DNA of 62,727 nucleotides, filler included, from Hausera hauseri (taxonomy: Eukaryota), in NCBI GenBank assembly GCA_046269625.1. It is 10 parts of 10 records of this genome, joined end to end, with 100 filler letters (N's around TTAATTAATTAA, not from the genome) between each part and the next. Parts side by side here need not be neighbours in the genome. Positions count along the whole stretch, not along the records: positions 41,526 to 47,157 come from JBJURY010217299.1; 9 more parts are not named here. One strand, written 5' to 3'. A program made the translations under genes and the position numbers. Below the pieces are notes generated by a model that worked only from the letters and a program-made list of their open reading frames with translations, ran no database searches and had not been told where the DNA came from. Position 1 is the stretch's first letter; each line of letters begins with the position of its first letter. This document shows positions 7,039 through 61,807 of this stretch, piece after piece.

Positions 7039-7314
7039 TTATTAATATGATGATCCATGGATGTTGATAGGACACAAGTTGTGTCCGCGACCGCGGTACC
7101 ACCTCACCCCCCCATGGCAGAAGAGAAACTATATAAGGATGAACAGTGTTTACCGGCTATTCGGTTTTAGTATGAGTTTGACGTTGTGTACCAACACAGA
7201 ACTTTTCTCTGCTGTAGGTACTGAATGTCACCCTGCGTACGTTACTGGATGGATTTATGATAGGATGTTGAGTGATGTTTTCCGATGGAGATGATAGAGA
7301 AAATGAGTGTCAGT

Positions 7315-27519: not shown

Positions 27520-28559
27520 TTGGATAATTGCAAAAGTTCGTGCCCGATTTGAAAATGAATCACAAACGCTTATATTTTATAGAAAACAATTTTATTAATC
27601 GATTATATAGTCACCACCATTTTCTGAAATTGCCTCCCAACGTTTTACAAGCTTGCGGATTCATTTTTCGTAAAAGCTGCGTGGTTTTTCGTCAAAGAAA
27701 GTCGATCCGTCCAAAGCTACCACGGAACGAAAGTTCTTGCCATTTAATCTATTCTGCAAAGAGTTTGGTCATTTGCTCACAGTACTTGTTCGCCGTGATT
27801 GTTTCGTCCTGTAGAAGAAGCTCAAAGAAAACTATTCCTTTTCAATCCCACCAAACAGACAGCAATACTTTCATTTGATGTAAACCAGCTTTTGCCACAG
27901 GTTCTGCGAAGGATCCATTTTCATCGCCTGTTACGATTCGATCCTAACAAGATTATTTTTCATGGCGACCAAGTAAGGAAATGACCACAGATGCGGTGCA
28001 GCTTATCCTTTTCTGTCAAAGAATGTGACACCCATGTATCGAGCTTGAAAGTAAATCCAACTTTCATTAAATCGCAAAATGCAGACAAATTGTCAATATT
28101 CAGCCTCTTAGCAATTTCCTCAGTTGTAATTCTTCGATTATTTCCCACTAAGTCTATCACAACATAATCATCAATGTCAGAAGGCCGCCCAAAGCGGGAT
28201 TGATCATCCAGGTTAGAATCACCATTGAGAAATCTGCCAAACCACTTTTTAACTGTTCTGAGAGCGGGAGCATGGTCCAAATAAACGTCCAGAATATTTT
28301 TGTTGCAGTTCCAACACTCACTTCTTTCTGAAACTCATATAATATGACATGGCGAAAATGTAATTTTTAGTTCTCCATTTTAAAAAATTTCTTTCCCACA
28401 AATCGACTTCTATTAACGGCTTCTGACATTAAAATGACTTACTATGTTATAACATATCTATCGATATATAATATTGCAATAAAGAAAACATTATCGCTGC
28501 GATGCGTCACTGTTTTTGCTAACTATCAAAATCGGACACGAACTTTTGCAATAATCTGA
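27520..28559 (-). mobile_element. mariner element, internally deleted, TIRs and TA target duplication
   Basis: TIRs TTGGATAATTGCAAAAGTTCGTGCCCGATTT / AAATCGGACACGAACTTTTGCAATAATCTGA flanked by TA; HFRHVILYEF, KWFGRF, GRPS, WVSHSLT. Confidence 0.92.
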
Positions 28560-32384: not shown

Positions 32385-33951
32385 AATGTTATATCTAGAA
32401 TTCGAATTAAGTGTCGATTCTATCTGGATATCACTTGAATTGAACTATACTAATTTCGGATATCGAATTTTCTGCGAATTAATTTTGTCGCTTTAACTTT
32501 TCTTATTGGCAATAAAGTTAGCCATCACATTTGTTATAAGTGCATGCATTTCGGATTATTTTGATTTTGGAAATTAAATGTTGAACTATCAAAATCGTAT
32601 TTACGTTCGTGAGTTTCGTTTATCCGCGAATTGGATGAAGTTTACGGTGCCGAAGCTTTCGGTTATTATGGTCAAGTGTAGGCACCAAAAAACGCTCGTT
32701 ATGGATTTTATATTTAACACACTAACGCAACTAAGGTGAAACATGGAAGTTTTATCACTTGGAAACGACAATGGTGTCAGAATTTACTGATAAATTAACT
32801 TATGGAACCGGTTGCACCTTCATTCCATCATCTTTTGGCAAACCGCGCACACACCCGATACTCGCATGGCTACTTGGATGTGCACATACCCTACTCAACC
32901 GTATTATTCTTTCCGGACCAACTCGACCACCTGACATTCCGATGCAGCGTGGGGTTAGTCAATTGTTCATTTTGCGATGCACGGTACTTTTTATGTTTTC
33001 ATTTTTCTACAAACCATTTGAAGTTTGCTATTAACATTACAACGAACATTGGATTTTTATATGGCTATTTTATTTGCGACAATTTGTTGATAATTATCGG
33101 TGGGAATAACAGGAAACTTTTTGAGACCCATTCAGTGACATCTGCGAAAGACAAGATCGAAGTAAAAATAATGTACATGGCCGCGAAATACGTTGCCGAA
33201 AATGGTGAACATTTAATCATTATTTTACAAAAGGAAATAACATATGATAAAAATGTTCACCCGTATGTCTCAAAAATTGGTGGAAATAAAACGTTACAAA
33301 GCAAACAAAAAGATAGGTGAATATTTGCTTACACACTTCTTCCAGTTCATTTAACAGACATTGTTAAATGCCAGTTTGTCATAGTTTGTAACGACAGTCA
33401 TGATCGACAAATAAATAAATTCTTACCAAAAGGAACTGAACAACGAAAACGAAAACCAATAAATCAAGTTCCACATGAACCACCATTGAAAAAACACGCG
33501 CGACATTATGTGAATGTATTTTAAATATCAGAGTTGGAGTCGCAATCTTTTAAACCAATTATCGAAACTAATCGTGCCATAAATGAACTACATGTTCCCA
33601 TATCAACAGTAACGAGATTCAACTTATGTTATGATCAACATTCCAGATTTGGTTTCCATTCCGCGTGCATCACTGCAAAAGAATGATAGTGTACAATAGG
33701 AACACATCCGAAAGGAAAAATAAAAGTAATGGTGATATAAATATCAAATATATTATAGGCCGACGAAAACGAAACGAAACAATAAAGGAAGTCACAGCTA
33801 TCCCTCCGAAAAGAAGGCCTACCGATAGTAAATTGGATTTAGGTAAAAAAATACGCAAACGAAGAGAAATCCAAACGAAACGGCACGAATTGGTCATAAA
33901 TACGCGTCCGGCAAACCTTGCAATCAAACAATTGAACTATTTGAGAAGCAA

Positions 33952-34710
33952 TTGCTAGTGGTGTTTACGCTACAGGATGACGTTGGGGACACCCCATTAA
34001 ACAACATAATATTAAAAGATAATAATTTTATACAATCAGACAGAATTCTGAAAATAGTGCGCGCACATAAACCGTGGGCCTTGAATTTGGTTAACACAAG
34101 TGAGCATACACCTTTAAATTTAAGCCCAGTTTTTAATATACCAACCGACTTTGTCAAAAAGTCCCTGCACACAGAACGTAATACTAATATTCGCGATGAT
34201 ATAAATAAAAATTCTGTCTCATATGCCACCGAATATGAAAATGCACTCGCTTTGAACGTATTATTGAAATATGTAAAAGAACAAAAACTTCATTCGCTAC
34301 AAAGGGGAAAAATTACTAACCATTCGCTGCTACATATCGCAGTTATCAACATTTCCTGCGAAGGCGTAAAGATGTTACCTAATCCGAAGTTTTCTGATGG
34401 AAGCTATACGGCGAAAGTAAACGAATCAGGTTTAACGGAAGGCGCAACGTTACCGCACTTGGCTATTATTAATACTATCAGTTCGGAAATTATTGAAGCC
34501 GTGTTTAACAGAGAAAAAACGGACATTAATACTCTGTATTTTGACAATATCACTCCTTGTAAAGAAAACAAAATTGCCAACATGCTCACTGAAAAAGGAG
34601 CTGCCGAAACTTTATGCAGCGAAGTTAACAATGATCACAAGTCGCTGATCGTCTGCCATTCCTTGAGTTTATCATGTAGTTTCAGTTATATCAGATGGCC
34701 TCCAACATAG
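33952..34710 (+). pseudogene. Degenerate intronless ankyrin-repeat ORF
   Basis: LQDDVGDTPL, NTSEHTPL, SLLHIAV, GATLPHLAI, DIN..IANMLTEKGA. Confidence 0.7.
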
Positions 34711-35700: not shown

Positions 35701-36859
35701 AAAATATCATTATTTTGTTTTTCTATTCGATAAGTTGTAACCAAAATCAATCCTCTTTGCAAATCTGCGTGTTTACGTATCAGAGGCATCATGATTGATC
35801 TAGAGGCAATTTTCAATCTAGATAAGTTCGACTCGGTACAAGACCACTCCTTTCAAAATATCGTAAGCAAAATAAGTAAAATCGTAGAAGCAAAAAAATT
35901 AAAAAGCATAAACCCCAAAAGTCAAATTCAAAATCGTGTATTTATTCTTTTCTTTTTTTTCTTATTTTAAACAAAAAAATCTTTACAAGTACATATGCAC
36001 ATGTATGATTCATTATATAGTGCAAATCTCACACGAGGCACTAGCACACATAGAGACTCGTAGTAAAACACAATTTCAATTGATATCACTTTGCTAACAA
36101 AAGAAAAGTATGAGAAATTCAATTATACCACAGTCGTATCCCGATATGGCAAATGTACATATTAGTAACAGTTAGTAAAATAAAGTACGTCTAATCACTA
36201 AGAAACATTTCAGTGTATAAATTTGGAAATTTCAATTGAGGTTTCGAATTTCGTGACTTCAAGATGGCCTATTGATGCTCGTATGTCCTGTCTGTTAGAA
36301 TTGGAAAAATGTCAAAAATACTGTCAATTTCATTTTGCCTGCTGCTGATTTCAGTCATATAGAGGTTCAATAAATTAATAGCATAATGACGCATCTCGCT
36401 GACTTTAGTCGAGTTTTGAAAAGATGTTGAATCTCCTTTAAAGAGTTCAATGTAGCAAATAAGAGAAAACAATGTTTCTTCAGGTTTCTTCGGTTTTATT
36501 AATCGGCCAGACGTTTTCACATGATAAGCGACGTTATTGAGTATGAAATACCTTGTTGTAAATGAACGTTGTACAGAAGGTACTTTGATGAAACGTTTGA
36601 TAAGTAGAAGTCTGAACTTGGTAATGACGCTGTACTTTGCAGATATCGAGATTGGCTGCTGGGTAGGCTGAAATCGATGTTCATTGATGATCAGTTATTG
36701 GGCAAATAGGCAGACAAAATCGACTGACCTGAATTGACATTGGTCATCGAATGAGTATGGGGAGAATCGTTGAAATGACTTAAACTCAGTGTTGCTTGTA
36801 TGCGACTAATTTCTTTGGCACACCAATGTGTGTGTTGACAACCCTTAAAATTGTTTCTC

Positions 36860-36930
36860 CGACAGTGAAAAACGGGCCCGTCTATGGGTCCGGCGTGGCA
36901 GCAACGGACGCCCGGCCGTGCCCGACCAAG
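36860..36930 (-). mobile_element. Truncated gypsy LTR 5-prime GC-rich segment
   Basis: Closely similar to 39390-39460 and 41805-41875. Confidence 0.75.
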
Positions 36931-37852
36931 TGATAAGAGCAAAGATTCTGAAGCTAAGCTGAATGTCTATGATGAATGTGTCAAGCGTGGCAAATGTGAT
37001 GTTTTCAATGAATTATTTGACATTGAGAAAGTGAATGGCCAGTGATTATCCTCAGAAAGTAAACCTCTAGACCATCAACAAGTGAAAAGTAAAGGACAAT
37101 TGGCAAGTAAAGAAACCATTTATTCTTCCGAAAGAAAAAAAGTCCAGTCTGGAACAGCATTACCCTCAACATCACAAGACCTGTCTCTCCAACAGACACT
37201 GGTACTGAATTTGAAAACAGCAAATATAAGAGTAAAGATGATGAAGACGACGAAGGTGATAAAGACAATGATGAGGACACTAGGGAAAAAACTAGAAAGC
37301 ACTACAAAACTAAATTTGCTATAAATTTGGCTACATCCATCACAACAAGGTATTGATATTCCAACTCCAAGTCAATCAGCAATTTACAAGTCCGCATTTA
37401 AAGAACCAGCTAAATTAAAGAAAGAAATGATATTACAACTACAAATGGAACAGTGGTCCTTACACTTTGACGGAAAACAAAGAGATGATAACAAATACCA
37501 GATAGTTATACTTCAGAATGAAAGAACGGACGTGAAACTTGATGCACTGCGTTTGAAAGACGGCAAAGCTGAAACTGTTGTTGAAGGAATTAATTGAAGG
37601 AAAGGGTGACACAAAACCACAATTTATCGGTTGTTAGCATCATGTACTGGACAGGATTCTCCGTTTGGTGATGGACGAAGAACTTGGAGGTGATACCAAA
37701 TCTCCAAACATTAAATACCCATCTGTTTCTGAACTGTTGAATACAAATGATGAAATGACAGATAAGTTTGTGAGCGGAACTGTAGAAATTCTTGATAAAT
37801 TAAGGTGGAGAGACGATATGAAGTTTTTGTACCATTTAAAAAGAGTGTTCAG

Positions 37853-38560
37853 AATTAGTTAAAGAATCCATTGGACTGGTGGAATATTGAGTACCAGGGG
37901 GACCATCCTGGCACCGTGACGCATGCTGAATTTTTGCTTTGTAAACAAGCAACGGTGGCGTAACGAGAAATGTATCGGCATTACCGCAAGTCAATACGGA
38001 ATAATTCCCATCGCCAATATGCATGATGACACCGTCAGACCAACATCGAAGACGACCAACCGAATTATTTCCTGATTTATTTAGAATAATTTCCTGTGTA
38101 TCAAATTTGATTGGCACCATCACATAATGAGTACTGTTCATAGAAATTCGTTACCAATTGGAAAAATTCATCGAATGCATCACTAGTTTCTCCTGCATAT
38201 CGCGCGTTATTGATTGTATCGTCACTCTGTTCATGCAATTTATGTTCCCAACGCTTTTCGAAACGTCGGACAAAATTCCCAGCTGGATAGACAGTTTTAA
38301 TTAATGGCAAATCCAATGACCATTCGCAGTCCCATGCATAACGCAAAAATTCCGCAATACGCTCTTCTTCTATTTCAGGCAAAACATTTTCAGATTTTCT
38401 CTCCACGGATTTCCTAAGATAATGTTCTGATAAAGTTGCCCACGGAATGCCGTGTAGTTTTGCAGCAGCTGAAACCGACATACCTTCATCGATTGACATA
38501 ACGGCTTTCAGAAGATCATCATGAATATAAGATAGACTGTTTCTTTTTGATGAATTTAAT
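37853..38560 (-). pseudogene. pogo/CENP-B-like HTH-psq plus DDE_1 protein fragment
   Basis: GMSVSAAAKLHGIPWATL; SVLTCGNA..PPLLVYKAK..GPPGTQY; truncated at the insertion boundary. Confidence 0.8.
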
Positions 38561-39490
38561 ATTCCAATTTTTTCTTTAAATGAGCAAAACCATTAAGATT
38601 AATAGAAAGATCAAAAAAATATGGCGCATCATATTATTTAACATTAATTCAAGCGTGTTCAAAAAAACTTTATTTCATTTTTTAAAACAACCAATCAAAA
38701 AAAATTTTTTACATATTTAACACGGCACAAATCCATCATGTCCCAAAAGTTATCTATTAAACGGTAACAAAAATGCGAATAAATATGGAATCAGATAACA
38801 AGATCAAAAGATATCGTCAGTTGGCTTGATCATGGAGAAATGTATTCTTCACTAATTCGGTGATAGTTTTTATCTCCAGAATTTTTGACTTCAAAAGTTC
38901 ATTATTTGTAATGTTAAGAGGCACCTGTGAACGATCCCCGATATTCATTGAACACAAATCCTGTGGACTTTCTGATGTAACCAATTCGCACGGCATAGCA
39001 CCATAAGTGTTAAAAACCATTTTACAAATAGCACGAACAGAATCCAAACTGATATTCGCACAAATATCATCGTTGAGGAAGTTTAAAAGTCTTGCTTGGA
39101 AACTCTTTCCTCAGATTTCTGTTGGACAAATTTGACAATTTCAACACAGTATTTGAGATCAGTTGCAAATGGAGTGACGGCTTCTCCTGGTTTAATATTC
39201 GCACCATTAACATGACCGAAACAAATGATATCTTCATTTTTCAAAATTGTACCATTTAAACTATGATCATATAACATATAATTTGCTTTGCTAAGCCTTT
39301 CAATTGTAGCATGATTTCTTGATGTCATTCGATTACTGACTGCGCTTTTCAAAGCATAATCTGGCGGCATTTTAGAATTCTTTCGGGGCGGAAGATCGGG
39401 GCCCGCCTATGGGCCCGACGCGGCGGCAACGGACGCCCGGCCGTATCCAACCAAATGGGCCAAAAGGCACCGGCCGATGTGGGCACCACA
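37853..39490 (-). mobile_element. LTR-headed cargo insertion flanked by TTCAG direct repeats
   Basis: Starts TGTGGTG on minus like the gypsy LTR; TTCAG at 37848-37852 and 39491-39495. Confidence 0.75.
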
Positions 39491-41789
39491 TTCAGGTTCT
39501 ACGAGGAACATGAATTTCCCACTAATTCACTTTCAGAACATTACAAATATGAACAATGCCAGATGGAACTCAAGAGCTATTCTCGCCCTTCTGGCGTTCA
39601 ATCTTATACGTAAAGCGAGAAAGAATTTGGAGACGATTTGCAGATTCATTTCGCATGAGTGGACAGAACATCAGTTTAGTAATTAGAAGTACAATGAGAA
39701 TGACATTAAGAATTTATATGATATATTGAAGCCTTACAAAAAGGCATTTCAGTCATTCAAAAACCACTGGAAAGAAGAGTCATCCGTCATTGACATACCG
39801 CAAAGTAATCAGATAGATGAACATGCAATCAAGGTGATGCAAGACTTCTATGCTTCCTGCAGAAACAAAGACAAACTGAAACTTAGATTCATTTTAAGTA
39901 ATAAGTGCTAGACTCTTTATAAATGGTGGGCATCCTGTGACCCCTGTATTAGACACTGTAAACAGTTATGCATATTATTGTACTGGACGCTTTGGTACTG
40001 TTTATTTTGTAATACATGTATAATTGTATATCAAATAATGTTTTTTGTTATATCACATCACATATGGCATAAATAAATAAGAACAAGAGTATGACTATTT
40101 TACAACATCTACTGTCTTAATATTGATTTACAATTTCTGTATATATTGAAAATTCAATTTCTTAGTTTGGCGGTGACCTTTTTTCAAAATATGTTAAAAT
40201 GAAAAGTCATATCCTTAATATATATATACATAATTGAAGTTATTACATTATTATGGAAACTAAAATAGAGTCAAAATCGCATCGTGCAAAATCACGAACG
40301 ACCGCCATTCTAAAGAACAGGTGGGATAAAAATTTCAAATAGGATGTAAACAACGATAAAAGAGTGACTGACTGGTTGCATCATGAAATAAACTTTGAGA
40401 AAAAAAAGAATGATAAAAGTTAGTGGAAATGAACCTAAAACAATTAACAAGTTCGAGGAGATTAAAACGGTCTTACAAAATAATAATTGCCTATACCAAT
40501 AGAAGGCTGTCCAAGGGGTTTGAATTGTAAAAATGTGCTCAGCCTTGTTAGAATAGGTTCCGGTGAAGCGGAGTTCTGCTAAACTTCCTGTATAAGGCCA
40601 AATTGTTCTTACAGTGGTTGTATGAAGGTGAACTAATTAAAGAAGTGAGAAGAGGTACCAAACTTATCAAAGCTCTGAGTTACTTAATTAACTTACTGAA
40701 AATACAAATTATCCATTCAAAACAAAAAATTGAAGTTAATTTACTGATCTACCTTGTCTTTGGGCGAAGTAAGAGTCGGAAAGCTCAAACTGGTAATCCA
40801 GCTAAGTCAGACAGTCATATATTCTTGGAAGTGACTTTACGAGTTCAAAGACAATTCAAGTCGATATAGTGGCTCTAGGTAAAAGAGTAAACTGTCTTAA
40901 ATCGACAATTGATTATAAAAGTACGGTCGAAGAGATACAACGTTTTAAAATAATCAAACCTGACAAACCCTTTACTGCGACAACAGCTATTAATGTTGAG
41001 GTTAGTTTAAGGCAAGGCCAAGTTATCTTCGTTGTGAGTGATGATCTCGACCTTTGTGTTGGTCGAACCCTTATAATCATGACATAAGAAGTTGTCCGAT
41101 TATTACAACAAACCGTCAGAACCAACACATTGGTGTATGAAGTCAGTATAGGCTCCACAACTCATATTGTCGAGAGTAAGGGCATAGTCCTAAGGGACCG
41201 AGTAAAGGGCGATAAATTACATTTGCAGATGAAGATAAACTCTAGTCCAATCGAGAGTGACATAAGTACTGGGTTTGGATTGGGGTTCCTACAAACTGTG
41301 AGGAGGGGGTGCTACATTATATAAATAAGTATTACAGTGCTATGAAATTAATGAGAATGGTGACGTAATCCGCATCACATTCTTTGCAATTATTTTATTT
41401 CAAATTATTCTCTGAATAAACATTANNNNNNNNNNNNNNNNNNNNNNNNNNNNNNNNNNNNNNNNNNNNTTAATTAATTAANNNNNNNNNNNNNNNNNNN
41501 NNNNNNNNNNNNNNNNNNNNNNNNNTAGCAACGGTGCCTAGCGGTACCGCTGCTAGGCACTTTATGATCCATCGTGCACAGTGTGCACTATGGATCGGCA
41601 CATGTGCAAAATCGACTTATTGATTACCCCCTGGGGGTGGGACCGAAAGCACATTTTCTCACTACTGTCATGAGTAAATCCACAAATACACTGTTGAATG
41701 AGATTCATAGATTTCGACAAATCGGACTTATCCAAATTGCCCGTTATAAAATTCCCAAACGGTTCGTTGTCCTATATATCTGGCGTTTT

Positions 41790-41907
41790 TTTTATTCTTT
41801 CTAGGCGGAAGATCGGGGGCCGCCTATGGGCCCGACGCGGCGGCAGCGGACGCCAGGCCGTGTCCAGACAAGTGGGCCAGAGAGGACCGGCCTCTGTGGA
41901 CACCACA
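41790..41907 (-). mobile_element. Gypsy LTR 5-prime end nested in the integrase of another copy
   Basis: CACCACA at 41901-41907 joined directly to integrase codons PCISRFESVHIDL. Confidence 0.8.
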
Positions 41908-43295
41908 CCATGTATATCGCGTTTTGAATCCGTGCATATTGACCTAGTAGGACCTCTTCGAACAGATAACGGCAATCAATTCATATTGACCATGATGGAC
42001 CGTGCTTCTCCATGGCCAGAGGCCATTCCATTACATTCTACCAACACAGATACTATCGCTGAGGTCTTCATCAAAACGTGGATCAGCAGATTTGGCTCCC
42101 CTCGTTTTATAATCACGGACCGAGGTCCACAGTTCGAGTCAAATCTCTTTAAATCCTTAGTAAATCGCTTGGGAATTAAACATTTGCACACTTCTCCATA
42201 TCATCCCCAAGCGAACAGTTTACTATAAAGATTTCACCGCACAATGAAGACCTCACTTAAAACCCTTACTGAATCACACAGCAACTGGACAGCTGTCCTA
42301 TCTCTTGTCCTGATTGGCTGGGGAAACACACCCTCCAGCACCACGTGTTGTGCACCAGCTAAAGCACTGTTTGGAACACCAATTCGAGAACTTTATGACG
42401 TAACTGATCTGGACGATACACCAGCAGAAGAGTTGATTCGGAATGCGCAAGATCACTTTGTTACACTAAACAAAGACTCATTTTGCAAGATAGTAAATTA
42501 TAACAAATCAAATATACTAAATGATTTGTATACCGCTAAGTTTGTCTGGCTTCGAAATCCTTCACCTTGTGGTTTCCAACCACAATACGTGGAACAATTC
42601 AAACTTTTATCTTTATCCTCCAATACAGCTACCATTCTTAAAAGTGGTAAAGAACAAACTGTGCACGTCACAAAGTTAAAACCAGCCTTCTTCGTTGATG
42701 ATTCTCCCGAAGACACGCAAACCAACACCAACTCTACTGGCACTTTTCTTGACTCCTTTGCCACCACTTCACCCCCATCCAATTTAACTAACCACACGCG
42801 ACCTTCACTTGAAGATAAATCTTCTTTTGATTCTTCTCTTCAACCTTTTCCAAATGCTCAGCCTCCTTCACATCTTCAACTTTCTTCAAACATGCATTCT
42901 TCTAATTCTGCTTCACTTTATATCTTTCCTTAATCCTCCTCAACTTCTGAATCTTCCATATATCCTCAATCTTTCACATCTCCATCTTTTCTTTCATCTT
43001 CACCTTTTACTAAATACTCGTTGCAACCTTCACTTTCCTCAACTAAAACAATACCCACGACAAAATCCCACATTTTTCCCCAACTTACATCTCGGCAAGC
43101 AAACTCAAAATACGCAAGCACAACACACAAAGTTACTTTCAGTAAGTACAATAGAGAACAAACTTTCGACGAAGTACAACGTCTGGTTCACACTAAAACC
43201 AAATATCGCACAAACACATTTCCCTTTTTGCAGATTTTGCTCGTTATTGCCTTTTTTTGTTTTATAGTTTTTAGTTTGCCACGGGAGGCGGATGA
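41908..43295 (+). mobile_element. CsRn1-like gypsy integrase, Ser/Thr/Pro-rich tail and PPT
   Basis: VHIDLVGPL, TDRGPQFES, YHPQAN; purine tract GGGAGGCGGATGA before TGTGGTG. Confidence 0.9.
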
Positions 43296-45789
43296 TGTGG
43301 TGTCTACGTGCTGTGCTGCCGCGCGGCCCATTTTGACCGGACACGGCCGGGTGCGTTGCTTCGCATCGGTGGTGCCGCTGGTCGGGTTTTTGATTTCTCC
43401 GTCGAAGGTTTTTGACATGATCGCAATTACCCCATTGCTTTATTCCAATCAAGCAGTTCGGTTTTGAAATGTCGACAGGGTCGAACATGATTTCCTAATA
43501 TTTGTTGACACGCTTTATTTTTATCAATATTTACTGGACTGAACCGTTTAACAGGCCTATAATTTAACATAAATTTCAAAATAAATGGAGCTGCAAAAAT
43601 GGGGGTTATCATACAATTGTCAGGTTTGCCCGGCATTCGTGTGACATTGTTTTGTTTTAGCGGAGTAAAAACATTACACAATTGCAATTTTCTTGATGAT
43701 TTTACAGCTATCTTTAAAAAAGAAACAGTATATTTTTCCTATCTTTTGGTTATTTCAATTTTGACGATGTATCTTTAAATATACGGTCGGGTCAATTATA
43801 ATGCAAAAATCCCCCTTTATGTCAATCAATCACATGTTTTTGATGCAACAAACCGTATTCAAGGAAAGTAGGTTTATGCACCACAAAATGCTAGGTCGGG
43901 ATTTCCTTTCATTTACTACTCAATTACTTAAGGAAGAATGGATTGACGAGATACATACGGACTCAACAAATGGTGTCAGATCAGCTTTTGTTCACATTAT
44001 TATCCAGAACGGCTCTCATTTATCTACAACGTCAGACTCCGCCGTTTCAATAATGCAAGATTCGGTGCATCCTGCCACCTTCGAATACATCAACGTTTCG
44101 GTGAGCTGCACATACCGTGGCCACAACGCAGATTACAGGTCGGTGAATTTGACTTATTGTATGGTAACGCTCTGCAGTTCCATTTTTTGTTATGCTATCA
44201 TCAAAAAATCCTTCATAATAATTCTGTATCATAATTCATGTGGTTGCGTTTCTGAAATTGCATTTGTATTTAAATATTTTGATTGGTCTTCTGTCACTAT
44301 ACACGTAAAAAATTTTTTGTTACAACATAATGAGGGAGTCATTGAATTTAAATCGTTGGTGCAATTTCTTTTACCTTTTCTTTTAATATTTAATGGTCAA
44401 CTGAAGGACAAAGAAATGTCTAGTAAAGAGGGAGTAAAATTATTTCTAATAAAAATGTATCCGATCGAAGACTGTCGACCGTTTCAATTTTCTGTCGGAC
44501 GTGGCGAAATACTTTGTGGAAATAGGCAACAAAAAAGTCAAACACACTAGCCAGTTTAAATTGAGTAAAAAACATAGATCTTAACAGTGCACGAGCATTG
44601 CTGGAATCATCATTCTTGTTACTATGGTTATATATCTTTAGGATCAATAGCGGAAAACATGCAGACACCCAGAGTAAGCTATACAATACCGTTATTAGTA
44701 CTTTTCTCAAAGGTCCAAAAACTTCCGTTACACGAGATATTTTCACTAATATTCTCGTCAGATTAAGGCACTTTATTTCTCAAGAAAAGTTAGATTTTGC
44801 CTCGGACGTAATAATCGATTTAATTGGCATTAATTATGGTCCTAAAAGCATTTATTCCAAGCGAATGAAGACAGGATTCTGTGCGTTTTCACTAATCATC
44901 TTAAGCCTACTGCAAAAGTCAAAGTGAAACACTCATGCAACAAAAGTCCAATTCTGACGCAACAGATTTATCAATAAATATCATACAGAAATTTCCGAAT
45001 TGGCGATTTAGGACCGTTCAGAGCCTTCTTGGTTTTGGTTGTAAAGAAATACCACACATCATAAAAGACAGAAATTTACAGAATTGCATAAAATCCTTGG
45101 GCAAAAATTCCACACACTTAATCAGATCAGCATTGGATATCGACTAGAAGTTCAACGCAACCGTGCAAAACTTACAAAATCGAGCCAATGAATTTCAATA
45201 CGGAACCGACGAAGCTATAAAAATGCTTAATGAATGCAACATGAAAACTCACTTACGCAATGATGCTATTGAACGATTGAAATTTGTTCACAATAAATGT
45301 CAAATATTATATTCGACAAATATGTCATCAATTCGAATCTGCAATTACAGCAGTCGAACTTAATCCACAATCGAATATCTTTGCAAACAACGTCAACTCT
45401 AAACCGGTTTTCATATCAACGGCCAAACTCTTTGACGGATATTTCTGCTGCTCGGCATTGCTTTGCCGTCCATGCGGGGTCGCGCGCTCGGTCGTTTGTC
45501 CCGGGGCTGTGGGTCTCGTGGCACGCAGCGCGGGGTTATCACGTCACGCCCCTGGCTCCAGCCAGCCCACTTTTCCATTTTCATTTTTAGATACAACACA
45601 CATCCATACGCATACCGAAAATCACAATACTTTAGGAAAAGACCTACATACTTCAATCTTACACGCCACCGACATGTCTGATTTAGTTTTATTTTTCAAT
45701 GGCTTCATCATCCGTCCACGTGATCGTCTGTACAGCTTTCCTTTGCATCCCTCTTCATCTATTTCTATCAAGCTTTAGCCTAAAATTCA
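43296..45789 (+). mobile_element. 2494-bp LTR (TG...CA) with internal host-gene cargo, shared between two tandem gypsy units
   Basis: Preceded by PPT, followed by PBS TGGTGGCTCTGAC; both ends match other copies; interior is unique. Confidence 0.75.
44240..45050 (+). pseudogene. FRY: Furry (FRY/FRYL) N-terminal domain fragment
   Basis: GVKLFLIKMYPIED, ARALLES..LLWLYIFRI..TQSKL, NILVRLRHFISQEKLDFA, RMKTGFCAFSLI..SLLQK match Furry GMKFFRIKMYPVED, ARVALES..LLWVYMIRI..TQSRL, NIFVKIIQFIAQERLDFA, RMNIGLRAFLVIADSLQQK. Confidence 0.85.
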
Positions 45790-47157
45790 TGGTGGCTCTG
45801 ACCCCAACTCTGACGAGATTAAGAAATCGCCAAACATAACCTTAGTGTCGCCAACTCTTTCCTCTTTTTCACACTTTCAGTGAATTGACTTCTTCCTCGA
45901 TAGTCAGAATTCCATTAGAAAATGGCTAGACGTCCACGCAAAGTGGCTAGCCTCACATAAAATTACCGATTCCTTTCAAAAAGCCAACAATTTGTTGATT
46001 CATCTGCCGCCCAACATAAAATCCTTCATTACTAATCTATTTGACATTTTCAATCACTCCGACGCTGTGGCTAAAGCAACTGAGCCTTCTTTGGACTGTA
46101 TAATTAAAAAATATTTCAATGAGAACGCTCTTGGGCAGCAAAAACCCACTGAATTCCTGTGCACTTCACTATCACAATTGAATTCTTTGGGAGTAAACAA
46201 AAAAAAAATAACTCCGATCTTCTCCGACGTTACTTCCTTTCAGCTCTGCTAATTTAAATACGCGCACTGCTCACTGTAGTTGAGGATTATACATCGCTCG
46301 ACAAACTGGCGCAACGTGCGGACAAAAGTTACGAAATTTTTCATAACAATAATACATATAAAACAATTTTAGCTCTACAAGCAACGCAATCACCAACAAT
46401 AGTTGCACGTCTACAATCAGCAAATTCATCAAACAACGAGAACACTATAGTTCATCAAATTCAAAATTTGGAAGCCAAAAATGCGGTCCTACATCAAGCC
46501 ATATCGGTCATCTCTAGCAAAATTGACGCTCTGTCTCTACCGCGTCACGCTGGGTTTAGCGCGGATCGAAGCAGACAATTGTCTGCAAACTCTAGGCACG
46601 GCCAGTCAACTTCGAGACAAATGGTGTGCTATTATTACACCAAATTTAATTAAAATTCCAAAAAAATGTTGTATAATCTGCAGGTTCTGTGCGCAGCATT
46701 TCCAATCACACTATGCGACCTGCATCTATCACATCAAGTTTAAAGACAATGCATAACGCTGCTTACATGAACGTTGCATTGAAATCTTTCCCGCACCACA
46801 CCAAATTTCTGATTAACTCGGGTTCAGCCGTCTCATTACTTCCTTCATCCTTCAACTCCTTAAAATTACTTCCCACGTCTGCCAGACTTTTCACTGCCAC
46901 TGGGCGAGCTTTACGAATTTCTGGTACTGCAGAACTTTCTTTTACTTTAGCACATTTCTCTGAAGTCTTCCGATGGAAATTCATAGTCGCTGACATCAAA
47001 ACTCCTATCTTAGGTTCTGATTTTCTATCACATCACAATTTACTTGCCGACTGCAGACAACATCGTGTCATCAAAAATAAAATCGATAATACAAAATCAC
47101 AAAACGGTACACAACTTGTCGCGAATCTTGCTGCGATGCCGAAATCGATATTAAAGA
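45790..47157 (+). mobile_element. CsRn1-like gypsy PBS, gag and protease
   Basis: PBS resembling tRNA-Trp complement; double CHCC finger; FLINSGSAVSLL; ILGSDFL. Confidence 0.9.
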
Positions 47158-47257: not shown

Positions 47258-50200
47258 GACGGCAAGATTCCGCGACGGAAGACGAAATGCAGCAGCCACG
47301 AACGACATCGGGGCAAAACGCAGTACCAGGTTGTACTCGGCCAAATTGAGCCACAGGGGAACAATTTATGTGTTCACCACATCACCGCTGCCCGTGGCCA
47401 AGTGAAAACTGTAAAGGTAAAAACAATAAAAGACAAAATCCGCAAAAGTGAAAAGTGTTTCTGTCCTACTCGGTCTTTGTGTGAATCAGACGTTGTACTT
47501 TGTTGAAATTTTGTTCTGTACTGTACTTTCTGACGGTAACTCTGCGTGTTTTGCTTGCGTATTTTGAGTCTGCTTGCAAAGGTGTAAGTTAAGGAAAAAA
47601 TATCTAAATTTACCGTTGGAGTTGTTTTAGTTGTTAAAGGTGGAAGTTGCAAAGGAGAGTCAGCCGAGGGTACAGAGGATATAAACGTGGAGCAGGTGCG
47701 AAGAATTGAGGATTGGAGGGAGATTTGGCATTTGTAGAGAATTGAGGAAAAAATATCTGAATTTACCGTTGGAGTTGTTTTAGTTGTGAAAGGTGGAAGT
47801 TGCAAAGGAGAGTCAGCCGAGGGTACAGAAGATATAAAAGGTTGAGCAGGTGCGAAGAATTGAGGATTAGAGGGAGATTTGGCATTTATAGAGAATTGAG
47901 GAGGGATATGAAGTGGAGTAGAGTTAGAAAATGACGTGTTTGAAGAAGGTTGAATGTGTGAAGGAGACCGAGAATTTGGAAAAGGTTGAAGAGAAAAATC
48001 TAAGGTAGATATGTCTTTACGTGAAGGTCGTGTGTGGTTAGATAAATTGGATGGGAATAAAGTGATAGCAAAGCAATCAAGAAAAGTACCAATAGAGTTG
48101 GTGTTGGTTTGTGTCTTAGGGAGAATCATCAACGAAAAGGCTGGTTTTAGGTTTGTGATGTGCACAGTTTGTTCTTTATTACTTTTAAGAATGGTAGCTA
48201 TATGAAAGGATAATGATAAAAGTTTGAATGGTCCCAAGCACTGTGGTTGGAAACCACAAGGTGAAGGATTGCCAAGCTAGACAAACGTAGCGGTATAAAA
48301 ATTCATTGGCATATTTGATTTGTTATAATTTATTATTTTGCAAAATGAGTCTTTGTTTAATGGAAGGAAGTGATTTTGCGAATCTCAAATTACCTCATCT
48401 GTTGGTGTATCATCCAGATCAGTCAATTCAAATGTGACCGAATATGTGTCCCAAACGATGCTTCAGCTGGTGCACAACCCGTCGTGGTGGAGGGTGTGTT
48501 TCGCCAACCAAGAATGACAAATAATAGGAGAGCTGTCCAGTTGCTGTTTGATTCATCAAGGATTTTGAGTGAGGTTTTCATTGTGCGGTGAAATCTTTCT
48601 AGTAAGCCGTTAGCTTGGGGATGATATGGAGAAGTGTGCATGTGCTTGATCCCCAAGCGATTGACTAAGGATTTAAAAAAATTTGACTCAAACTGAGGAC
48701 CTTGGTCCGTGATTATGAAGCGAGGTGAGCCAAATCTGCTGATCCAAGTTTTAATAAAAACCTCAGCGATTGTGTCCGTGTTGGTGGAGCGCAATGGAAG
48801 GGCCTCTGGCCATCGAGAAGTACAATCCATCATGGTCAATATGGATTGAAGGCCGTTATCTGGTCGAAGAGGGCCGACTAGATCAATATGCACGGATTCA
48901 AAACGCAATGTACAAGGGAAATGATAAAGTGGTGGCTTCAGATGTCTGTTAATTTTGAACTTCTGGCATGCCGCACACGCCCTAATCTACGCTGTACGTA
49001 TGATCCCATTGACGGCCATATAACGTTTCGTTGTAAGAGCTAAAAAGTTGCTTTAGCGCCAGGATGATGAAGAGAATCACGCTATGTAATGCAGTTCTTT
49101 GCAAAGATGAACATAGTATAGGTTTGTGATTGCCGGGTCTAGAATTGTCATAGGCAACGCCGTCGATGATTTGGTATGATTTAAAGGATTTAAGAATATT
49201 CTGCGTTGGCACATTTTGCTGAAGCACAACTTGTGAAAAAATCGGCATGACTCCTATGATGTCAAGTGATCTTGATAAAAATAGGCAACTAGATTGTTAG
49301 TGCCTTAAATATGTACCATTTTGAAACTGAATGTCGACAAGTAAGATATGTGACGTTCCTGTTGGGGTGAAGGGGCTTTCATGTCCATAATGCTAATCAG
49401 AGGTTTGTAGTCTGTTTGGATCGTAAAAGACCTGGCAATTATCTAATGCGAGAAGTGTTTTAGAGCTAATACTATAGCTAAGAGTTCTCTGTTGAAAGTT
49501 GAATAACGACTTTCTGGTGGTGTAACTTTCCGAGAATAAAATTCCAGAGGCTCGTTGACGCCATTAGAAATTTGATCCAGTATTGCGCCAACTACTGTGC
49601 TAGAGGCGTCTGTGGTTAATATCAGCTCTGCGTCAGGCTTGGGGTATGCTAAAATTTCAGTGGTTTTTATACCCTCACGTAAATGTTCGAATTGGTTTAC
49701 AAGTTCAAGTGTCCTGTGAATTAACTGTTTCTTTCTTCCAGGTGATAAAAATGCAAAGGTGCAGTTAATTCGGAGCAATGTGGCACGTATTTATAAACAA
49801 AGTAGAATGTAACAAGAAAAGAGCGCATTTCAGTCGTTGTACGTGGTAGTTGAATGTTTTTAAGCTGAGTTATGCGATCTTGTTGAGGCGAGTGGCCAGA
49901 TTTGCTGATAACATGACCAAGAAAGTCGATTATCTGTTGGAAAAAGGATAATTTAGCGAAGTTAACTTCGAGATTAAATTGGCGGAGGCTCTGAAAGGCT
50001 ATGCATAAATGCTCAGAATGTTGTTTGGGAGACGACGAAGCGATGAGGATGTCGTCTATATACGGGAATGCAAAGTTTAGACCGGCGAACACTGTACCTG
50101 TGTACCTTTGAAATGTTTGTGAGGCACTACGAAGTCCAAATGGCATGAAAATATACTCGAAAAGGCCGAAAGGTGTTGTTACAGCCGTTTTCGGTATGTC

Positions 50201-52740
50201 AGCCAATGAGACAGGAATCTGATGGTAGGCTTTATGAAAATCTATGGATGAAAATATGGTGTTACCATTGAGTCTGTATAGGATATCATTGATGAGCGGT
50301 AATGAATACGCGTCCATTACCGTAATGGTGTTTATTTGGCGGTAATCGCCACAGGCCTGAAAGTACCGTCCTTCTTAAGCACTACGTGCAGAGGTGAGGC
50401 CCAAGTTGACTTTGATCTTCTTATAATTCCTGCCTTTTCTAATTCATTAAATTCCAACTCTACCACTTTGCATCTGCGAGGAGAAAATGGCCTAACCTTC
50501 TGTTTAATTTGTCTCTGGTGTTCAGTGACGATGTGATGGTATGTTGTAGAAACAGGTTTAAAGTTGGGGTCTTTCTTTAATGTTCTGGCACAAGAAATTG
50601 TTATGTAATCGCGAGGAGCTGAATCTAGTTGTAAGAATGGAGATGCAGGCTGAGAAGTCATGTTTGTATTTGTAGTTGTTTTTAATGATTGTACGAATAG
50701 AATCGTCACAATTGTAATTTCCAACACTCAGTTCATTTAGTTTGATTACAGATTTCTTTAATATCGATTTTGGCATTGCAGCAAGATTCGCGACAAGTTG
50801 TGTACTGTTTTGTGATTTTGTATTATCTATTGTATTTTTGATGACACGATGCTGTCTGCAGTCGACAAGTAAATTGTGATGTAAAAAAATCAGAACCTGA
50901 GATAGGAGTTTTGAAGTCAGCTACTATGAATTTCTATCGGAAGACTTCAGAAAATTGTGCTAAAGTAAAAGAAAGTTCTGCAGTACCGGAAATGTGTAAA
51001 GCTTGCCCAATTGCAGTGAAAAGTCTGGCAGACTTGAGAAGTAGGAGTTGAAGGATGAAGGAAGTAATGAGACGGCTGCACACGAGTCAATCAGAAATTT
51101 GGTGTGGTGCGGGAAAGATGTCACTGCAGCGTCCAAAAGAAAAACAGCGTTGGTACAAAGATTAAGTGATGAAAAATGGCTTTTTCCAGAGGCTGCCGTA
51201 GTTTTGGAGGCATTATTCATTTTTTGAATAGATGAAGATGTTGAAGTTTTCTGGTTGTAAAACGTACACCCAGGAAGCAGCGTTCTGCATTGTCTTTAAA
51301 CTTGCTGTGATAGATGCAGACCGCATCGTGTGATTGGAAACGCTGCGAATAGAACATGCAGCCTATACAGTATTTTGTGGCATTTCGAATGAATTTGGTG
51401 TGATAATAGCACACCATTTGTCTCGAAGGTGACTGGCCGTGCCTAGAGTTTGTAGACGACTCTCTGTTTCGATCCGTGCTAAACCGATTGCGACGCGGTA
51501 GAAACAAAGTGTCAATTTTGCTAAGATGGCCGATATGGCTTGATGTAGAGCCGCATTTTCGGTTTGCAGATTTTCAATTTGATGAACTATAATGTTCTCG
51601 TTGTTTGATAAGTTTGCTGATTGTAGATGTGCAACTATTGTTGGTGATTGCGTTGCTTGTAGAGTTGAAATCGTTTTATATGTATTATTGTTATGAAAAA
51701 TTTCGTAACTTTTGTCCGCCAGTTACGCCAGTTTGTCGAGCGACGTAGAATCCTCAATTACAGTGAGGAGTGCACGTATTTGGATTGGCAGAGCTGAAAG
51801 GAAGTAACGTCGCAGAAGATCGGCGTTATTTTGTTGGTTAACTCACAAAGAATTTAATTGTAATAGTGAAGTGTGCAGGAAATTACTGGGTGTTTGCTGC
51901 CCAAGAGCGTTGTCATTGAAATATTTTTGAATTATAGAGTCCAGAGAAGGATCAGTTGCTTTATTAATAGCATACAATAGAGATTTGTAGGGGTCGGAGT
52001 GATTGAAAATGCCAGATAGATTAGTAATTTTATGTTGGGCGGCAGATGAATAAGCAAACTGTTGGCTTTTTGAAAGGAATCAGTGATTTTATGTGGGGCT
52101 AGCCACTTCGCGTGGAAGTCTAACCATGTTCTGCTGGAATTCCAACTATGGAGGAAAAAGTCAACGCACTGTAAGTGCGAAAATGAGGAAGGAGTTAGCG
52201 ACACGAAGGTTATGTTTGGCGACTTCTTAACCTCGTCAGAGTTGGGGTCAGAGTCACTATGAAGTTTAGGCTGAAGTATGATACAAATGGATAAATAGGG
52301 ATGCAGAAAAAAACTATACAAACGATCATGTGGACGGATGATGGAATCGTTGAAAAACAAAACAAAGTCAGACATGTTGGTGGCGTGTAAGATTGAAGTA
52401 TGTAGCTCTTTTTCTAAGGTATTGTGGTTTGCGATGTGTGTGTGGATGTGTGTGTTGTATTTAAAAATGAAAATGGAAAAATTGTTCTGGCTGGAACTAG
52501 GGGCGTGACGTGATTGCCACGCGCTGCATGCTGCGCGACCCATGGCCGCAGGGTGAACAACGGCTACTACGGTTCCTCCGTAATGGCGCCGAAAAGGCAC
52601 AAAAGGAAGACTCCCGTCGGAGAAAACGACCGCCGGTACGGCATTTTCGGGAACCGCAATAAAACCACGGTGTTTGAGATTGGTTCTATCGGCAATGATA
52701 ACGTCGATCTCAAATGTAACATATTGATCGACCTTTTCTG
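47258..52740 (-). mobile_element. Near full-length CsRn1-like gypsy copy (frameshifted)
   Basis: LTR end CA at 52260 and PBS TAGTGACTCTGAC; gag, FLIDSCAAVSLL, FPYIDDI, TTDASS, VHIDLVGPL; PPT then TGTGGTG at 47381. Confidence 0.93.
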
Positions 52741-53141
52741 TCTTTTGCTTCATAACCATATTAAATGAATTACTTTTTGTACTGTCGTTCTTCCTGCTGG
52801 TGTTTGTATTGAAAAATTATCAATGAAGGACGGATTGTGTAACTTGATTTGATCAGGATTCTTTCTCTCCTCCGTCTTTGGTGTAACGTTATTTGAACTG
52901 AACACCGACTGTTTAGTGGCATTGGAAAAACTAAAATATGTGGGTTTCGAAGCGTTTTCCTGGGCCATTGATAACTTCGAGGGATTTTGAGAATAAGGAG
53001 TAGCGATTGCTTTTAAAACTAACGGTGGTGATTTGAGATTTCCGGAAAAATTTGACGTGGCAGAACCGGAAACGAAGGGTTTTAAAGAGGACTTTGTATC
53101 GGCAGTATTCGTGGTAGACCCCAATAGTAGAAGGAAAGGAG

Positions 53142-53501
53142 CACACTGGGCCATTCCCTCCCAGGATCGATGGTCAATATTCAATAAACAATTTCTTTGA
53201 ATTTTGAATTTTTGAATTTTTAAAAGTGCACCATTGATTTTTCGAAAGTGTGCAGCACTATTCGGTGCAAATTTCGAAAATTTTCGAAAAACGAAAAATG
53301 TGTATTTTTGAATTCTGTTCACGATGGTATTATTGAAAAAAAGTTTTCCTAAAAAAACTTTTTCGAACTTTAATATCTTTTCACCGAGTTTTCAAATAAT
53401 TTTGGTTGGAAGGGCAAAAATGTCCAGTTTTTTGAGCTCTATTCAATGGTATATGTCGCAAGTCTGTACAACCCTAAGAACCCAATATATAACGATTCGA
53501 A
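53142..53501. mobile_element. Possible Transib/Chapaev-like DNA transposon end
   Basis: Starts CACACTGGG, followed by AT-rich TTTTCGAAAA palindromic subterminal repeats; other end lost at linker. Confidence 0.4.
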
Positions 53502-58388: not shown

Positions 58389-59220
58389 ATGTTAAATCGC
58401 ATCATTTCTTCGGGGTATTCCGAATATACCACCGTTGCAACTTCCGTCATCTTTACTTCTTTAACTCCTTTCTTATATGTTGTCTATTCTCTTTCGGCCG
58501 TTCTTCCAACCGTCTTATTAAATTTTTTTTCCTTTAATAACATAAGATGGCATCGATTCGAACTAACATCCCAAGTCATTTTAGATTCTCCACTATCACA
58601 CTCCCCGTTTTTATATTCGCATTTACTCATAATTGTCATGAGTTTAGTTTGTGACTCAAATAACCCCTCATATTTATTCAATTGAACTTGATAATCTTCG
58701 ATGGCTACTGTTCTTGATGCGGTAGTGCCTCCCACGACATAGTCTACCCCTTTACAGGTGCCTTCCATTGTTTTATCTATCCTTCCAGCTCGAAAAATTC
58801 GAGTATATTTTATTTTTTTTGTACTGCATATATTTGCGCGTTTTGTATTGTTATCACTCCGATTTTAAATGCATCTTGACATTCAGCTCGTGATATAATT
58901 ATCGGTTCGAAAGGTGTTGTTGGTTCGATAATAGCGGAGTTTCCAGAATAATATTCACAATTGAATTGTAAGTATGATTTCTTTACGTAGCACTCTCTGA
59001 TTTTAGCCTTGATGAATTCCGATTCTTGGTACATCCAATAACTATGACCATTAATTGTTGTTAATTGTTCGGGATCGGCTTTAGGGCACTTTTCTAAATC
59101 CACCAAGAAATACTTCTGCCTTTCTTTAGGTTTCGAACAATCATAAGCCACCACGCCCATAGCCTTAGGCATGCAGATGGATGCTATCAATAATAGTTGT
59201 AATATATCCATAAATATCAT
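58389..59220 (-). pseudogene. Chuvirus-like envelope glycoprotein N-terminal half
   Basis: Hydrophobic leader ILQLLLIASICMPKAMG then VVAYDCS..CP..YQ..EC..NC..ISRAEC..GTCKG..CEYKNGEC..W....C, the cysteine spacing of chuviral G proteins and their endogenous derivatives; stop/frameshift near 58800. Confidence 0.75.
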
Positions 59221-61807
59221 TCCACCTAAGCCTTGTTTTATAACACTAGGTTGTGTTGCAGTTATTCTTCCATATTGTCCTCCTTCGGGTCTCCTACCGT
59301 TCATTAAACTTGGTATCCATCCGCACCTATATTGCACCCAGTTTTCCCAAGTATCGGGTAGGATTTTAACTGTTACTCTTATGTTCCTTTCGAGTTCCTC
59401 AAGGTTTTGTGTCTGATAATTGATAACAATTACTTTATATAGCAAATAAGCAACAGCCTTTACAACTTTTTCTCTGGTAATACCTGTTGTAAACATCTTC
59501 TCCAATATGTCTTGTTCATGTAGTTTGTTAATTCTCTCTTCATTAATGTCCTCGTAAAATTGTCTGCTAATTCTCAGCATGCTGTTACGCAACGTCTGGA
59601 ACAAGTCGTCGGGAGTAGTCACTTGCATATCGAAAGATGCGAATGATATATGTAATTTTGATAGCAGCGTTCTCAACAATGGGTCTATATCTATAGTTTC
59701 TAATGTCGTATCTCTTCCTGCCAATAGTAAGCGTCGTACAATCTCTTCATTTCTATCTCTTATTCCGAATATCACTTATTTTAGTTCCTTTTGGCCGTCC
59801 TTTTCTTTTAGCCTCAGTTTGTACCGTGACATCCTGTATGTTACCGGTTGGTTGCTCTTCTACTTCCTGTGGTTGTAGTTCCTTTATTGTGTTTTCTATT
59901 GTTTCCTCCGCTCTTGCGTCAGGGTGTATCTTGGTTATCGTGATTGGGTTATAGTTTTCGCTTCTACATCCAATTCTTAGTAGTTTATCATAACCATATA
60001 ACGTTCTTCCATAAAAACTTAACCCATACAGAACGGTTCTAACTCTTCAATTCTCTCTCGAAACGTTAATATGTCATCTGTCTCATTCATTCTGATAACC
60101 CTCATATCGTGATTTCCTTCTTTTAATGTTATTCTTAATGCTTCGTTTCTTCCTCTTTTATTTTCAGCTACTTTAGCCAATATTGTCCGAGCTATCTCTT
60201 ANNNNNNNNNNTTCAATTCTTTCTCGCAACGTTAATATATCATCTGCTTCATTCATTCTAATAACTCTCATATCCTGGTTTCCTTCTTTTAACGTTATTC
60301 TTACCGTTTCGTTTCTTCCTTTTCATCTTCAGCTACATTAACCAATATTGTCAGTGCTATTTCTCTTATTGGACTAGTATCGTGGGCGAGTAATAGTAAC
60401 TGGAATAAAATTTCGTTTGTCTTAACTGTAGATACCTTACTATCTATTAATTTTAGTATGCTTGTCGCTTGATTTACGTCTATTATATTTTTAGGATCTA
60501 TAGCAATTACGCTGGGATAAGGTCTTCAGCATCTAAATCTACCTCTATATCATGTATTACTTGTTCAATAACGATTTCATCAAAAAATTTTGTGGGTTGC
60601 ACTTTTTCACTTTCCTATGACGTTGACTCGCCAGACTTACTTTTCTTTCGTCCTCTTTTGTCCTACATCGCTTTTCTCCACAGAAGTTTCTGGATTCCCC
60701 CCCCTTCTATCTTTTTATTACCCTTCTTTCTTGTAGAGGTTTTCCTCCTTTTGACTTTTTCGTTACGTAAATACTATTTTCTCTTAATCGTTTCTGTTGA
60801 ATTTTATAATCCTTTAATTCTATGTCTAGTTGCTTTCTCATATGTTGAGATAATATCTCGTTAACATAGTTTACACTCTCTTTTATCTTTTTTTATGCTC
60901 ACTATCCTATGTTTCATATTCTTTATCGGATGATTCATCCAATGTGGCTGACACATAATCCTTCTGTTTATTACCATTGGACTTAGAAGAATCTCTATCG
61001 TGACCTACGTGTTTTTGCTATGTGACCGTATTTATTACAATTAAAACACTTCAACCTCCCTTCTGAATCTATATTGGGTAATGCCCTTCCATCCTTCGTA
61101 GAGCTTTTTTTTCTTGTAATTGAACCTCACTTTCTTTTCTACGTCTGATTCAGCTTCTAATCTGACGTTTGCGAGGGACTTCGATTCCTGACATACCGCT
61201 GATATTTTTGTGTACTATTAATTTTCCTTTTATCTTGTTTACCTCCGTAACTTTTAGACTTGTTCCATTTATATAGGTCCACATCTCATTCGGCTTTACG
61301 AGCTTTCCTTATAGCTTTTTGGAACGTAGGTGGATCGGCTTGTAAAATTATTTCCATTAACTTTCCTTCTAATCCCTATTGGAATTGGGCCAACAATGCA
61401 TTGTTTCTTATCGTTACGTCAGGGCTGCCCGTGCTGCCAATTTTTCCAGTGCGCATAAGTAATCTTGGACTGACTTGTCTTTTCGTTGCCTTCTTCGTAT
61501 AAATTCTTCTATCCTCCCCTTTCCAGAGGGATCAACTAGAAACTTGTGTGGCAACTTTTCTTTAATGGATTTCCAGTCCTTCTTATCATCTTCTGGCATC
61601 TGGAAATAAATCTTTAGGGCTGTTCCTTTTAAATGAAGAGGCAATCTCCATCCGTTGTTGGTTGTTCCATCCAAAACTTCTTTAGTACACTTCGTACTCC
61701 ATCATAAAATCTTGTACATCTTACTTTCCACTAAACTTTTTCATAGGCAGGGTGAAATCAGCTTTTGACTGTATCATCCGTTCTACGTTATAGTTATTTC
61801 GGGCCAT
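58389..61807 (-). mobile_element. Retroelement B: Gag-CCHC, UBL, AT-hook, chuvirus-like Env (decayed)
   Basis: ATG at 61807; KFSG.DVQDF, LPLHLKGTALKIY, RRQRKDKSVQDY (retrotransposon gag); CFNCNKYGH at about 61045; LRITLK..DDILTFRERIE..LSFYGRTL; KRKGRPKG at about 59800. Confidence 0.8.

Follow-up and report, generated by a model that had tools for sequence, protein, structure and literature searches.

Gene capture by LTR retrotransposons, in its known form, sacrifices internal coding sequence of the element. In each of the 15 fly cases described in PMC5131818, a stretch of the internal ORFs had given way to the retrocopy, and the LTR-element captures described in PMC6431247 are placed downstream of pol or between the LTRs. 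Capture inside the LTR, if true, would spare gag-pol, double the cargo whenever the element inserts, and let solo LTRs retain it. By such a high-copy route retrocopies could form, exons could be shuffled and small RNAs could cross-talk with host genes, the last of which is described for gene-capturing telomeric elements (PMC13534243). A locus with this arrangement was analyzed in a 62,727-nucleotide stretch of DNA from Hausera hauseri (GCA_046269625.1; referred to here as the window). The window consists of ten short contigs joined by N spacers, so the other copies of the element sit on unlinked contigs. The contig at 41526-47157 contains, in order, integrase, a polypurine tract (PPT), a 2494-bp segment, a primer site, gag and protease:

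41908-42933, plus strand: integrase core and C-terminal region, the upstream internal part (PF00665, E 4.1e-12; one stop; 82% identical to 47258-53501)
43283-43295, plus strand: PPT-like sequence GGGAGGCGGATGA, 11 of 13 bases purines, at the same position in the copy at 47393-47382
43296-43436, plus strand: LTR head, beginning TGTGGTG, and predicted 5' arm of a stem (from alignment and folding)
43437-44385, plus strand: interior with no assignment; a 261-codon open frame (43765-44550) has its first ~207 codons here
44428-45099, plus strand: colinear Furry fragment in four profile blocks, with a weak extension to 44386-45282
45375-45570, plus strand: start of the conserved tail and predicted 3' arm of the stem, with an inverted copy of the PPT and head at 45402-45570
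45571-45789, plus strand: R/U5-like end, with terminal CA at 45788-45789
45790-45802, plus strand: primer binding site (PBS), putatively of the tRNA-Trp type, by comparison with PMC2582038
45803-47157, plus strand: gag with a CHCC-type motif near 46721, and protease; decayed and ended by the contig end

The segment runs from TGTGGTG at 43296 to CA at 45788-45789, with the primer site starting at 45790. Both its boundaries and its length of 2494 bp agree with an earlier note on this DNA, which had delimited a single LTR by PPT-TGTGGTG at 43296 and CA-PBS at 45789. A TG...CA LTR between a PPT and a PBS, as in Ty3/gypsy elements, is present. The primer site, TGGTGGCTCTGAC, resembles but is not identical to the published TGGTGAG/CCCCGT/A (PMC2582038), and no tRNA was found in the window. 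The CHCC Gag motif CX2HX9CX3C occurs exactly at 10198 (minus strand), whereas at 46721, 51318 and 10291 the sequence is CX2HX9C and the final Cys is shifted or absent. Together with the CHCC-type motif, the primer site is compatible with the description of the CsRn1 clade in PMC2582038. A ribozyme-type LTR was excluded, there being no Rfam family and no tRNA. Two related LTR tails, at 3200 (plus strand) and 11120 (minus strand), have CG and not CA before the primer site. Related internal regions, with coding parts 65-90% identical, are found on three further contigs, and a domain search identified RT, RNase H and integrase in them in Ty3/gypsy order. The gag-PR-RT-RH-IN order is complete in the sister copies at 47258-53501 and 7039-12244; the contig at 41526-47157 has IN and gag-PR only, with five stops and three frame changes in gag-protease over 45690-47157. 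Judged by its sequence, this contig is a decayed CsRn1-like Ty3/gypsy element. No partner LTR or target site duplication (TSD) was found within it. The succession PPT-LTR-PBS in one contig requires either a tandem or recombinant array or the collapse of two identical LTRs and, because the two LTRs of a decayed element should differ, plain assembly collapse is unlikely and a tandem or recombinant junction would then be required. The earlier note mentioned neither this topology nor the inverted arms, rich in G-U pairs, on either side of the cargo.

Among the copies in the window, only the segment at 43296-45789 has both LTR ends, and no element has two LTRs. The ~400 bp at its 3' end that were said to be common to other copies were recovered, with similarity to two copies beginning at ~45375-45390. 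The corresponding claim for ~110 bp at the 5' end held in part: the match is real but weak, and its length is ~120-140 bp. Blastn returned the first 7 bases only; alignment of the head with that at 47381 gave 73 identities over 119 aligned bases, and 0 of 1000 shuffles were as good, with or without those 7 bases. A head profile identified five heads. Four had been used to train it; the fifth, at 36932, was new (E 1.8e-8). Similarity among the copies ends at roughly equal places, which are the borders of the arms. The interior is unique, as had been proposed, with no match elsewhere in the window below E 0.17. A candidate poly(A) signal lies near 45590-45600, where AATAAA is found in two of four tails and variants in the other two; this site would place the cargo in U3 or R. 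A variable U3 would imply a promoter in the tail, and downstream promoters occur in LTR elements of flies.

The interior matched Furry (Pfam PF14222, E 3.6e-12; 79 matches at E<=0.001), and a profile was built from 16 of the 79 matches. Profile positions 271-285, 290-311, 387-510 and 646-686 occur in order on 44428-45099. One of the blocks is strong (105 bits) and the others are weak, but credible because their order and position fit. The fragment lacks ~75 and ~135 profile positions through two large internal deletions, and the description of it as collapsed is borne out by the colinear blocks and the two gaps. On these profile matches, the Furry identity of the fragment is certain. Furry makes up 35% of the interior, or 46% including the weak extensions; the view that the interior is mainly Furry was not upheld, since ~1 kb lacks an assignment and 43437-44385 has no Furry signal. 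An impression by eye that the 221 codons upstream of the fragment are Furry was not supported (116 of 200 shuffles were equally good), and the profile did not bear out a 38-residue match that would put more of Furry, out of sequence, at 45245-45358. A word-indexed protein search with the Furry ORF, which had a 2000-aa ceiling, gave no match. At its end, the 261-codon open frame at 43765-44550 continues into Furry without a change of frame. A simple composition model puts the chance of 221 open codons upstream of Furry at ~1e-7, and these codons had no match in Pfam, the Atlas, a protein search or Furry N-terminal profiles. The Furry piece is continuous across a position where the gene models of four relatives break or differ, and across a second position where 12 of the 79 matches end. 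Reading through both positions suggests a spliced source, and the piece may thus derive from mRNA.

The PPT and the first ~140 bases of the LTR are inverted-complementary to 45402-45570, with few gaps (95 identities over 162 aligned bases; 0 of 300 shuffles as good). The predicted energy of the sense duplex of the arms is -163 kcal/mol, against -102+/-7 for composition-preserving shuffles (0 of 300 as good), and that of the antisense duplex is -98 against -80+/-6. A fold of the whole LTR gave 111 arm-arm pairs in the sense strand and 51 in the antisense; each arm folded alone was no better than shuffles. Mismatches of the G-U type exceeded those of the A-C type by 29:3 at 43296-45789 and by 16:4 and 8:3 in two other elements; the pooled ratio of 53:10 was stable across three scoring schemes. 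Control comparisons of direct copies gave 17:9 and 36:49, with no significant bias. The plain reading of this bias would be selection on an RNA stem. A-poor arms alone favor G-U by ~70:30 (a hand estimate), and A-to-I editing of a stem gives a bias of the same sign. In the sister element the arms are unlike as DNA (145 of 300 shuffles as good) and their RNA pairing is modest (1 of 300). In the divergent element sense pairing, weaker than at 43296-45789, was reached by 0 of 300 shuffles and antisense pairing by 2 of 300, and its head pairs with its own tail, yet has no match to the head at 43296. Conserved sequence stops where the stem stops, so the variable part would be the loop of a stem that presumably forms in vivo. 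The arms offer a concrete candidate reason for captures accumulating at one site.

Other LTR ends in the window were examined together with their neighboring sequence:

1292-2650, plus strand: GCN1 fragment upstream of the related tail at 2800-3200 (E 4.2e-10 and E 8.6e-11)
11119-12123, minus strand: tail of the divergent element with a RasGEF/SOS-like piece (12123-11995) upstream; weak (E 0.0087 and E 0.094)
36272-36932, minus strand: partial LTR head (36932-36858), then an ORF with a nuclear-receptor ligand-binding-domain lead (0.91)
39089-39490, minus strand: related LTR head (39490-39373), then directly a TCF19 FHA fragment from which 11 residues are deleted in frame
41526-41907, minus strand: related LTR head (41907-41790) and unassigned sequence, lying within the integrase gene and oriented against it
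47258-53200, minus strand: sister element with a near-complete internal region, a tail at 52700-52260 preceded by unassigned sequence, and a head at 47381-47258 that ends at the contig end

The GCN1 fragment aligns over residues 1309-1778 with a PDB chain of 2898 residues that is labelled ribosomal protein L19; yeast GCN1 and the Pfam EF3/GCN1 repeat matched it less well, and a search of the PDB with the piece at 1682-1930 was blank. That chain (8i9x, chain LR), which matches GCN1-like HEAT repeats under its L19 label, is probably a fused gene model. The FHA fragment is closest to one protein at 77%, and next come TCF19-type proteins from Protopolystoma at 62% and from Cichlidogyrus at 55%, these being three matches among 49 candidates; they identify the host as a flatworm. 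The first bases of the TCF19 piece coincide with the last of the head at 39490. Neither the head at 41907 nor that at 39490 has a PPT; both begin directly with TG (the former with exactly TGTGGTG). Approximately 25 bases after them are alike (41790-41765 and 39385-39360, minus strand) and form the start of the TCF19 piece; they are ambiguous between a shared cargo remnant and microsimilarity at the junction. Neither Pfam nor the PDB gave a match for the nuclear-receptor lead that follows the head at 36932. On these matches GCN1 and TCF19 can be firmly assigned as host pieces at LTR ends, and RasGEF and the nuclear receptor weakly so; two slots have no assignment. The cargo is in sense orientation in three of three firm and two of two weak cases, for which the chance expectation is 1 in 8 for the firm three and 1 in 32 for all five. 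Apart from the ~25 ambiguous bases, no cargo was shared in any of the 21 pairs among seven cargos. The three other tails had no recognizable head upstream (the best candidate was equalled by 10 of 200 shuffles), and none of the three orphan heads was followed by a tail. The proposal of an LTR with a host gene fragment inside it is supported at 43296-45789, where host coding sequence lies between head and tail, and other ends adjoin host pieces in sense orientation, but each other copy is one-ended.

In a control scan of 226 ORFs of at least 65 residues, with the satellite contig left out, six host-type domains were found at a cut-off of E<=0.001, three of them in LTR slots (P ~0.04); without Furry, two of five were in LTR slots (P ~0.10), a weak enrichment. 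The satellite contig (53604-58287) consists entirely of a 31-bp repeat in ~150 copies. Other observations in the window include an ABC transporter fragment with no adjoining LTR part (26980-27225, minus strand), a Mariner-type HTH (27963-28366), a weak ankyrin ORF (33847-34710) and a piece of Psq-type transposase downstream of the TCF19 cargo (38104-38592). A Ser/Thr/Pro-rich open frame upstream of the sister element's tail (52750-53391, minus strand) was blank in domain searches and is possibly unrecognized cargo. Two contigs stop inside an LTR head, 124 bases (47258) and ~60 bases (7039) into it, which fits reads diverging into many continuations.

The best explanation, to which we assign a probability of roughly 60%, is capture of mRNA by template switching into the dispensable loop of one long CsRn1-like LTR. 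The LTR plan would be head, variable loop, inverted head and R/U5. In the element RNA, the PPT and head would pair with the inverted copy and close the loop at the 3' end; alternatively, if the inverted copy lies in R, the pairing would join the two RNA ends. Only the arms and the end would be needed, leaving the loop free. During minus-strand synthesis the reverse transcriptase would jump to a co-packaged host mRNA and then back. We infer template switching as described in PMC5131818, with the regaining of the PPT and integrase end as the filter. Products returning before the head would retain both and could integrate. The LTR, and with it the partner LTR, would then contain the mRNA piece, which later slips would shorten. 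Standard reverse transcription copies cargo in U3 or R to both LTRs alike. Counted against this explanation is that GCN1, TCF19 and the rest are one-ended and could be flanking DNA. The lack of shared cargo, the weak enrichment without Furry, the modest pairing in the sister element and the A-poor composition of the arms also tell against it.

A one-off capture at the DNA level appears improbable. Gap repair, or a gene-carrying element inserting itself, would have patched host sequence into LTRs that were already integrated, with hairpin-prone arms helping and no spread by retrotransposition. All cargos differ, nested insertions abound in the contigs, and the single-copy animal Pack-TIRs described in PMC8277862 are explained by gap filling, all of which would be expected of such events. 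However, the cargo is in sense orientation in all five assignable cases, none of six other informative LTR ends belongs to a short, empty LTR, and neither a TSD nor poly(A) was found at the cargo borders. Introns are apparently absent from the Furry piece, whose lesions (three frame changes and two stops over 44428-45282) have a density like that of gag-pro (5 in 0.86 kb against 8 in 1.47 kb). We consider it distinctly improbable that the segment is not one LTR but two elements flanking a Furry pseudogene, or a chimeric contig, with each LTR truncated. The short contigs, the PPT-LTR-PBS topology and the lack of a partner LTR would fit this arrangement, but head and tail end at borders found in other copies and the flanks on the two sides are similarly close to the sister element at 47258-53501 (82% and 85% identity). 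Moreover, the head scores highest against the inverse of its own tail (96, compared with 81, 82 and 47 for other tails). Although ~140-bp GC-rich inverted repeats around gene fragments recall Pack-MULEs and Pack-TIRs, it is very improbable that the arms belong, as terminal inverted repeats, to a non-autonomous Pack-TIR DNA transposon targeting one spot in a retrotransposon, given that the left arm includes the PPT and the TG start of the LTR, the mismatches at this locus lean towards RNA pairing, the inner borders lack TSDs (the outer were judged by eye) and the divergent element has an arm pair of its own.

For mRNA capture into the LTR loop, translation of the cargo was also considered. The likely gag ATG, at 45674, is inside the LTR. 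The third-position excess from this position was 23 of 38, versus 11 and 13 of 39, in one comparison and slight in the other. In three of three copies no stop interrupts the gag frame when it is followed upstream across the tail (14, 5 and 32 of 5000 shuffles), and in one copy it continues the GCN1 frame, the last frame of that fragment running on into the tail at 2800-3200. The arm has no clear third-position bias, and the open frame upstream has no clear codon bias. A gag frame that extends into the LTR and is open further upstream makes a cargo-Gag fusion possible. A broader and tentative proposal, which we hold to be doubtful, is that a whole flatworm Gypsy lineage maintains the RNA stem with its loop as a standing mRNA-capture cassette, in which cargo would be exchanged faster than the arms diverge, doubled per transposition and translatable as an N-terminal extension of Gag.

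The segment at 43296-45789 is a real feature and probably a new form of LTR-mediated gene capture, and its framing by a predicted RNA stem is unreported in the literature searched. Viral genes in U3, namely MMTV sag and HIV nef, are parallels. Variable protein-coding cargo inside LTRs was described in no title or abstract among the papers listed by full-text literature searches, a scope outside which lie subscription journals, Repbase and supplements with possible repeat libraries. In gene order (RT-RNase H-integrase), CHCC-type Gag and flatworm host, and in a PBS that is putatively of the tRNA-Trp type, the element is like the CsRn1 clade members PwRn1 and AgCR, but the LTRs given for that clade are short (381 bp in PwRn1 and a mean of ~330 bp in the CsRN1 training set), compared with 2494 bp with cargo here (PMC2582038, PMC3601003). 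Long LTRs are shared with Ogre and Burro, and planarian Gypsy elements also capture host domains, although in Burro these are described within the internal polyprotein rather than the LTR (PMC6431247). One contig of the window contains, at 58487-61701 (minus strand), frames for a retrotransposon gag, a weak Bcl-2-like stretch and a mononegavirus-type fusion glycoprotein, and resembles the Burro elements of planarians in PMC6431247, a likeness that hints at a planarian host. A long, broken ORF series at 21900-25950 (plus strand), with a zinc knuckle, coiled-coil-like stretches and a ubiquitin-like domain, is perhaps a piece of a giant Gypsy polyprotein.

The TRIMs Cassandra, Helenus and Ajax also have host-derived sequence within the LTR, but as described in PMC10886601 this is a fixed 5S- or tRNA-derived promoter in short, non-autonomous elements with a proposed SINE origin, whereas the pieces here are variable, protein-coding and accompanied by gag-pol. 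The TRIMp3 definition, a small-RNA-derived LTR in a short non-coding element, does not describe this element, which has no tRNA, no Rfam match and a gag-pol. Pack-MULEs and Pack-TIRs likewise carry gene fragments between inverted repeats, but are DNA transposons (PMC8277862). RNA pairing near the PPT or U3 has been linked to reverse transcription in the CYC5/CYC3 interaction of Ty1 (PMC3681743) and the PPT stem-loop of Sireviruses (PMC3601003); as described there, those pairings enclose no kilobases of exchangeable host sequence, in contrast to the arms of ~140 nt at the level of the LTR seen here. The BARE-2 and Veju chimeras are similar in that foreign sequence entered the LTR region by abnormal template switching, and differ in that the donor described in PMC13317346 is another retrotransposon or unknown DNA, in single events. 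A close parallel is LTR-mediated retroposition in animals (Tan et al. 2016, PMC5131818), in which partial host pieces lacking poly(A) and TSDs are joined to LTR-element sequence and multi-gene chimeras can arise by template switching, as is proposed for 43296-45789. Unlike the fly retrocopies described there, the cargo here lies between the PPT and the PBS, is surrounded by inverted arms and leaves the internal ORFs unreplaced.
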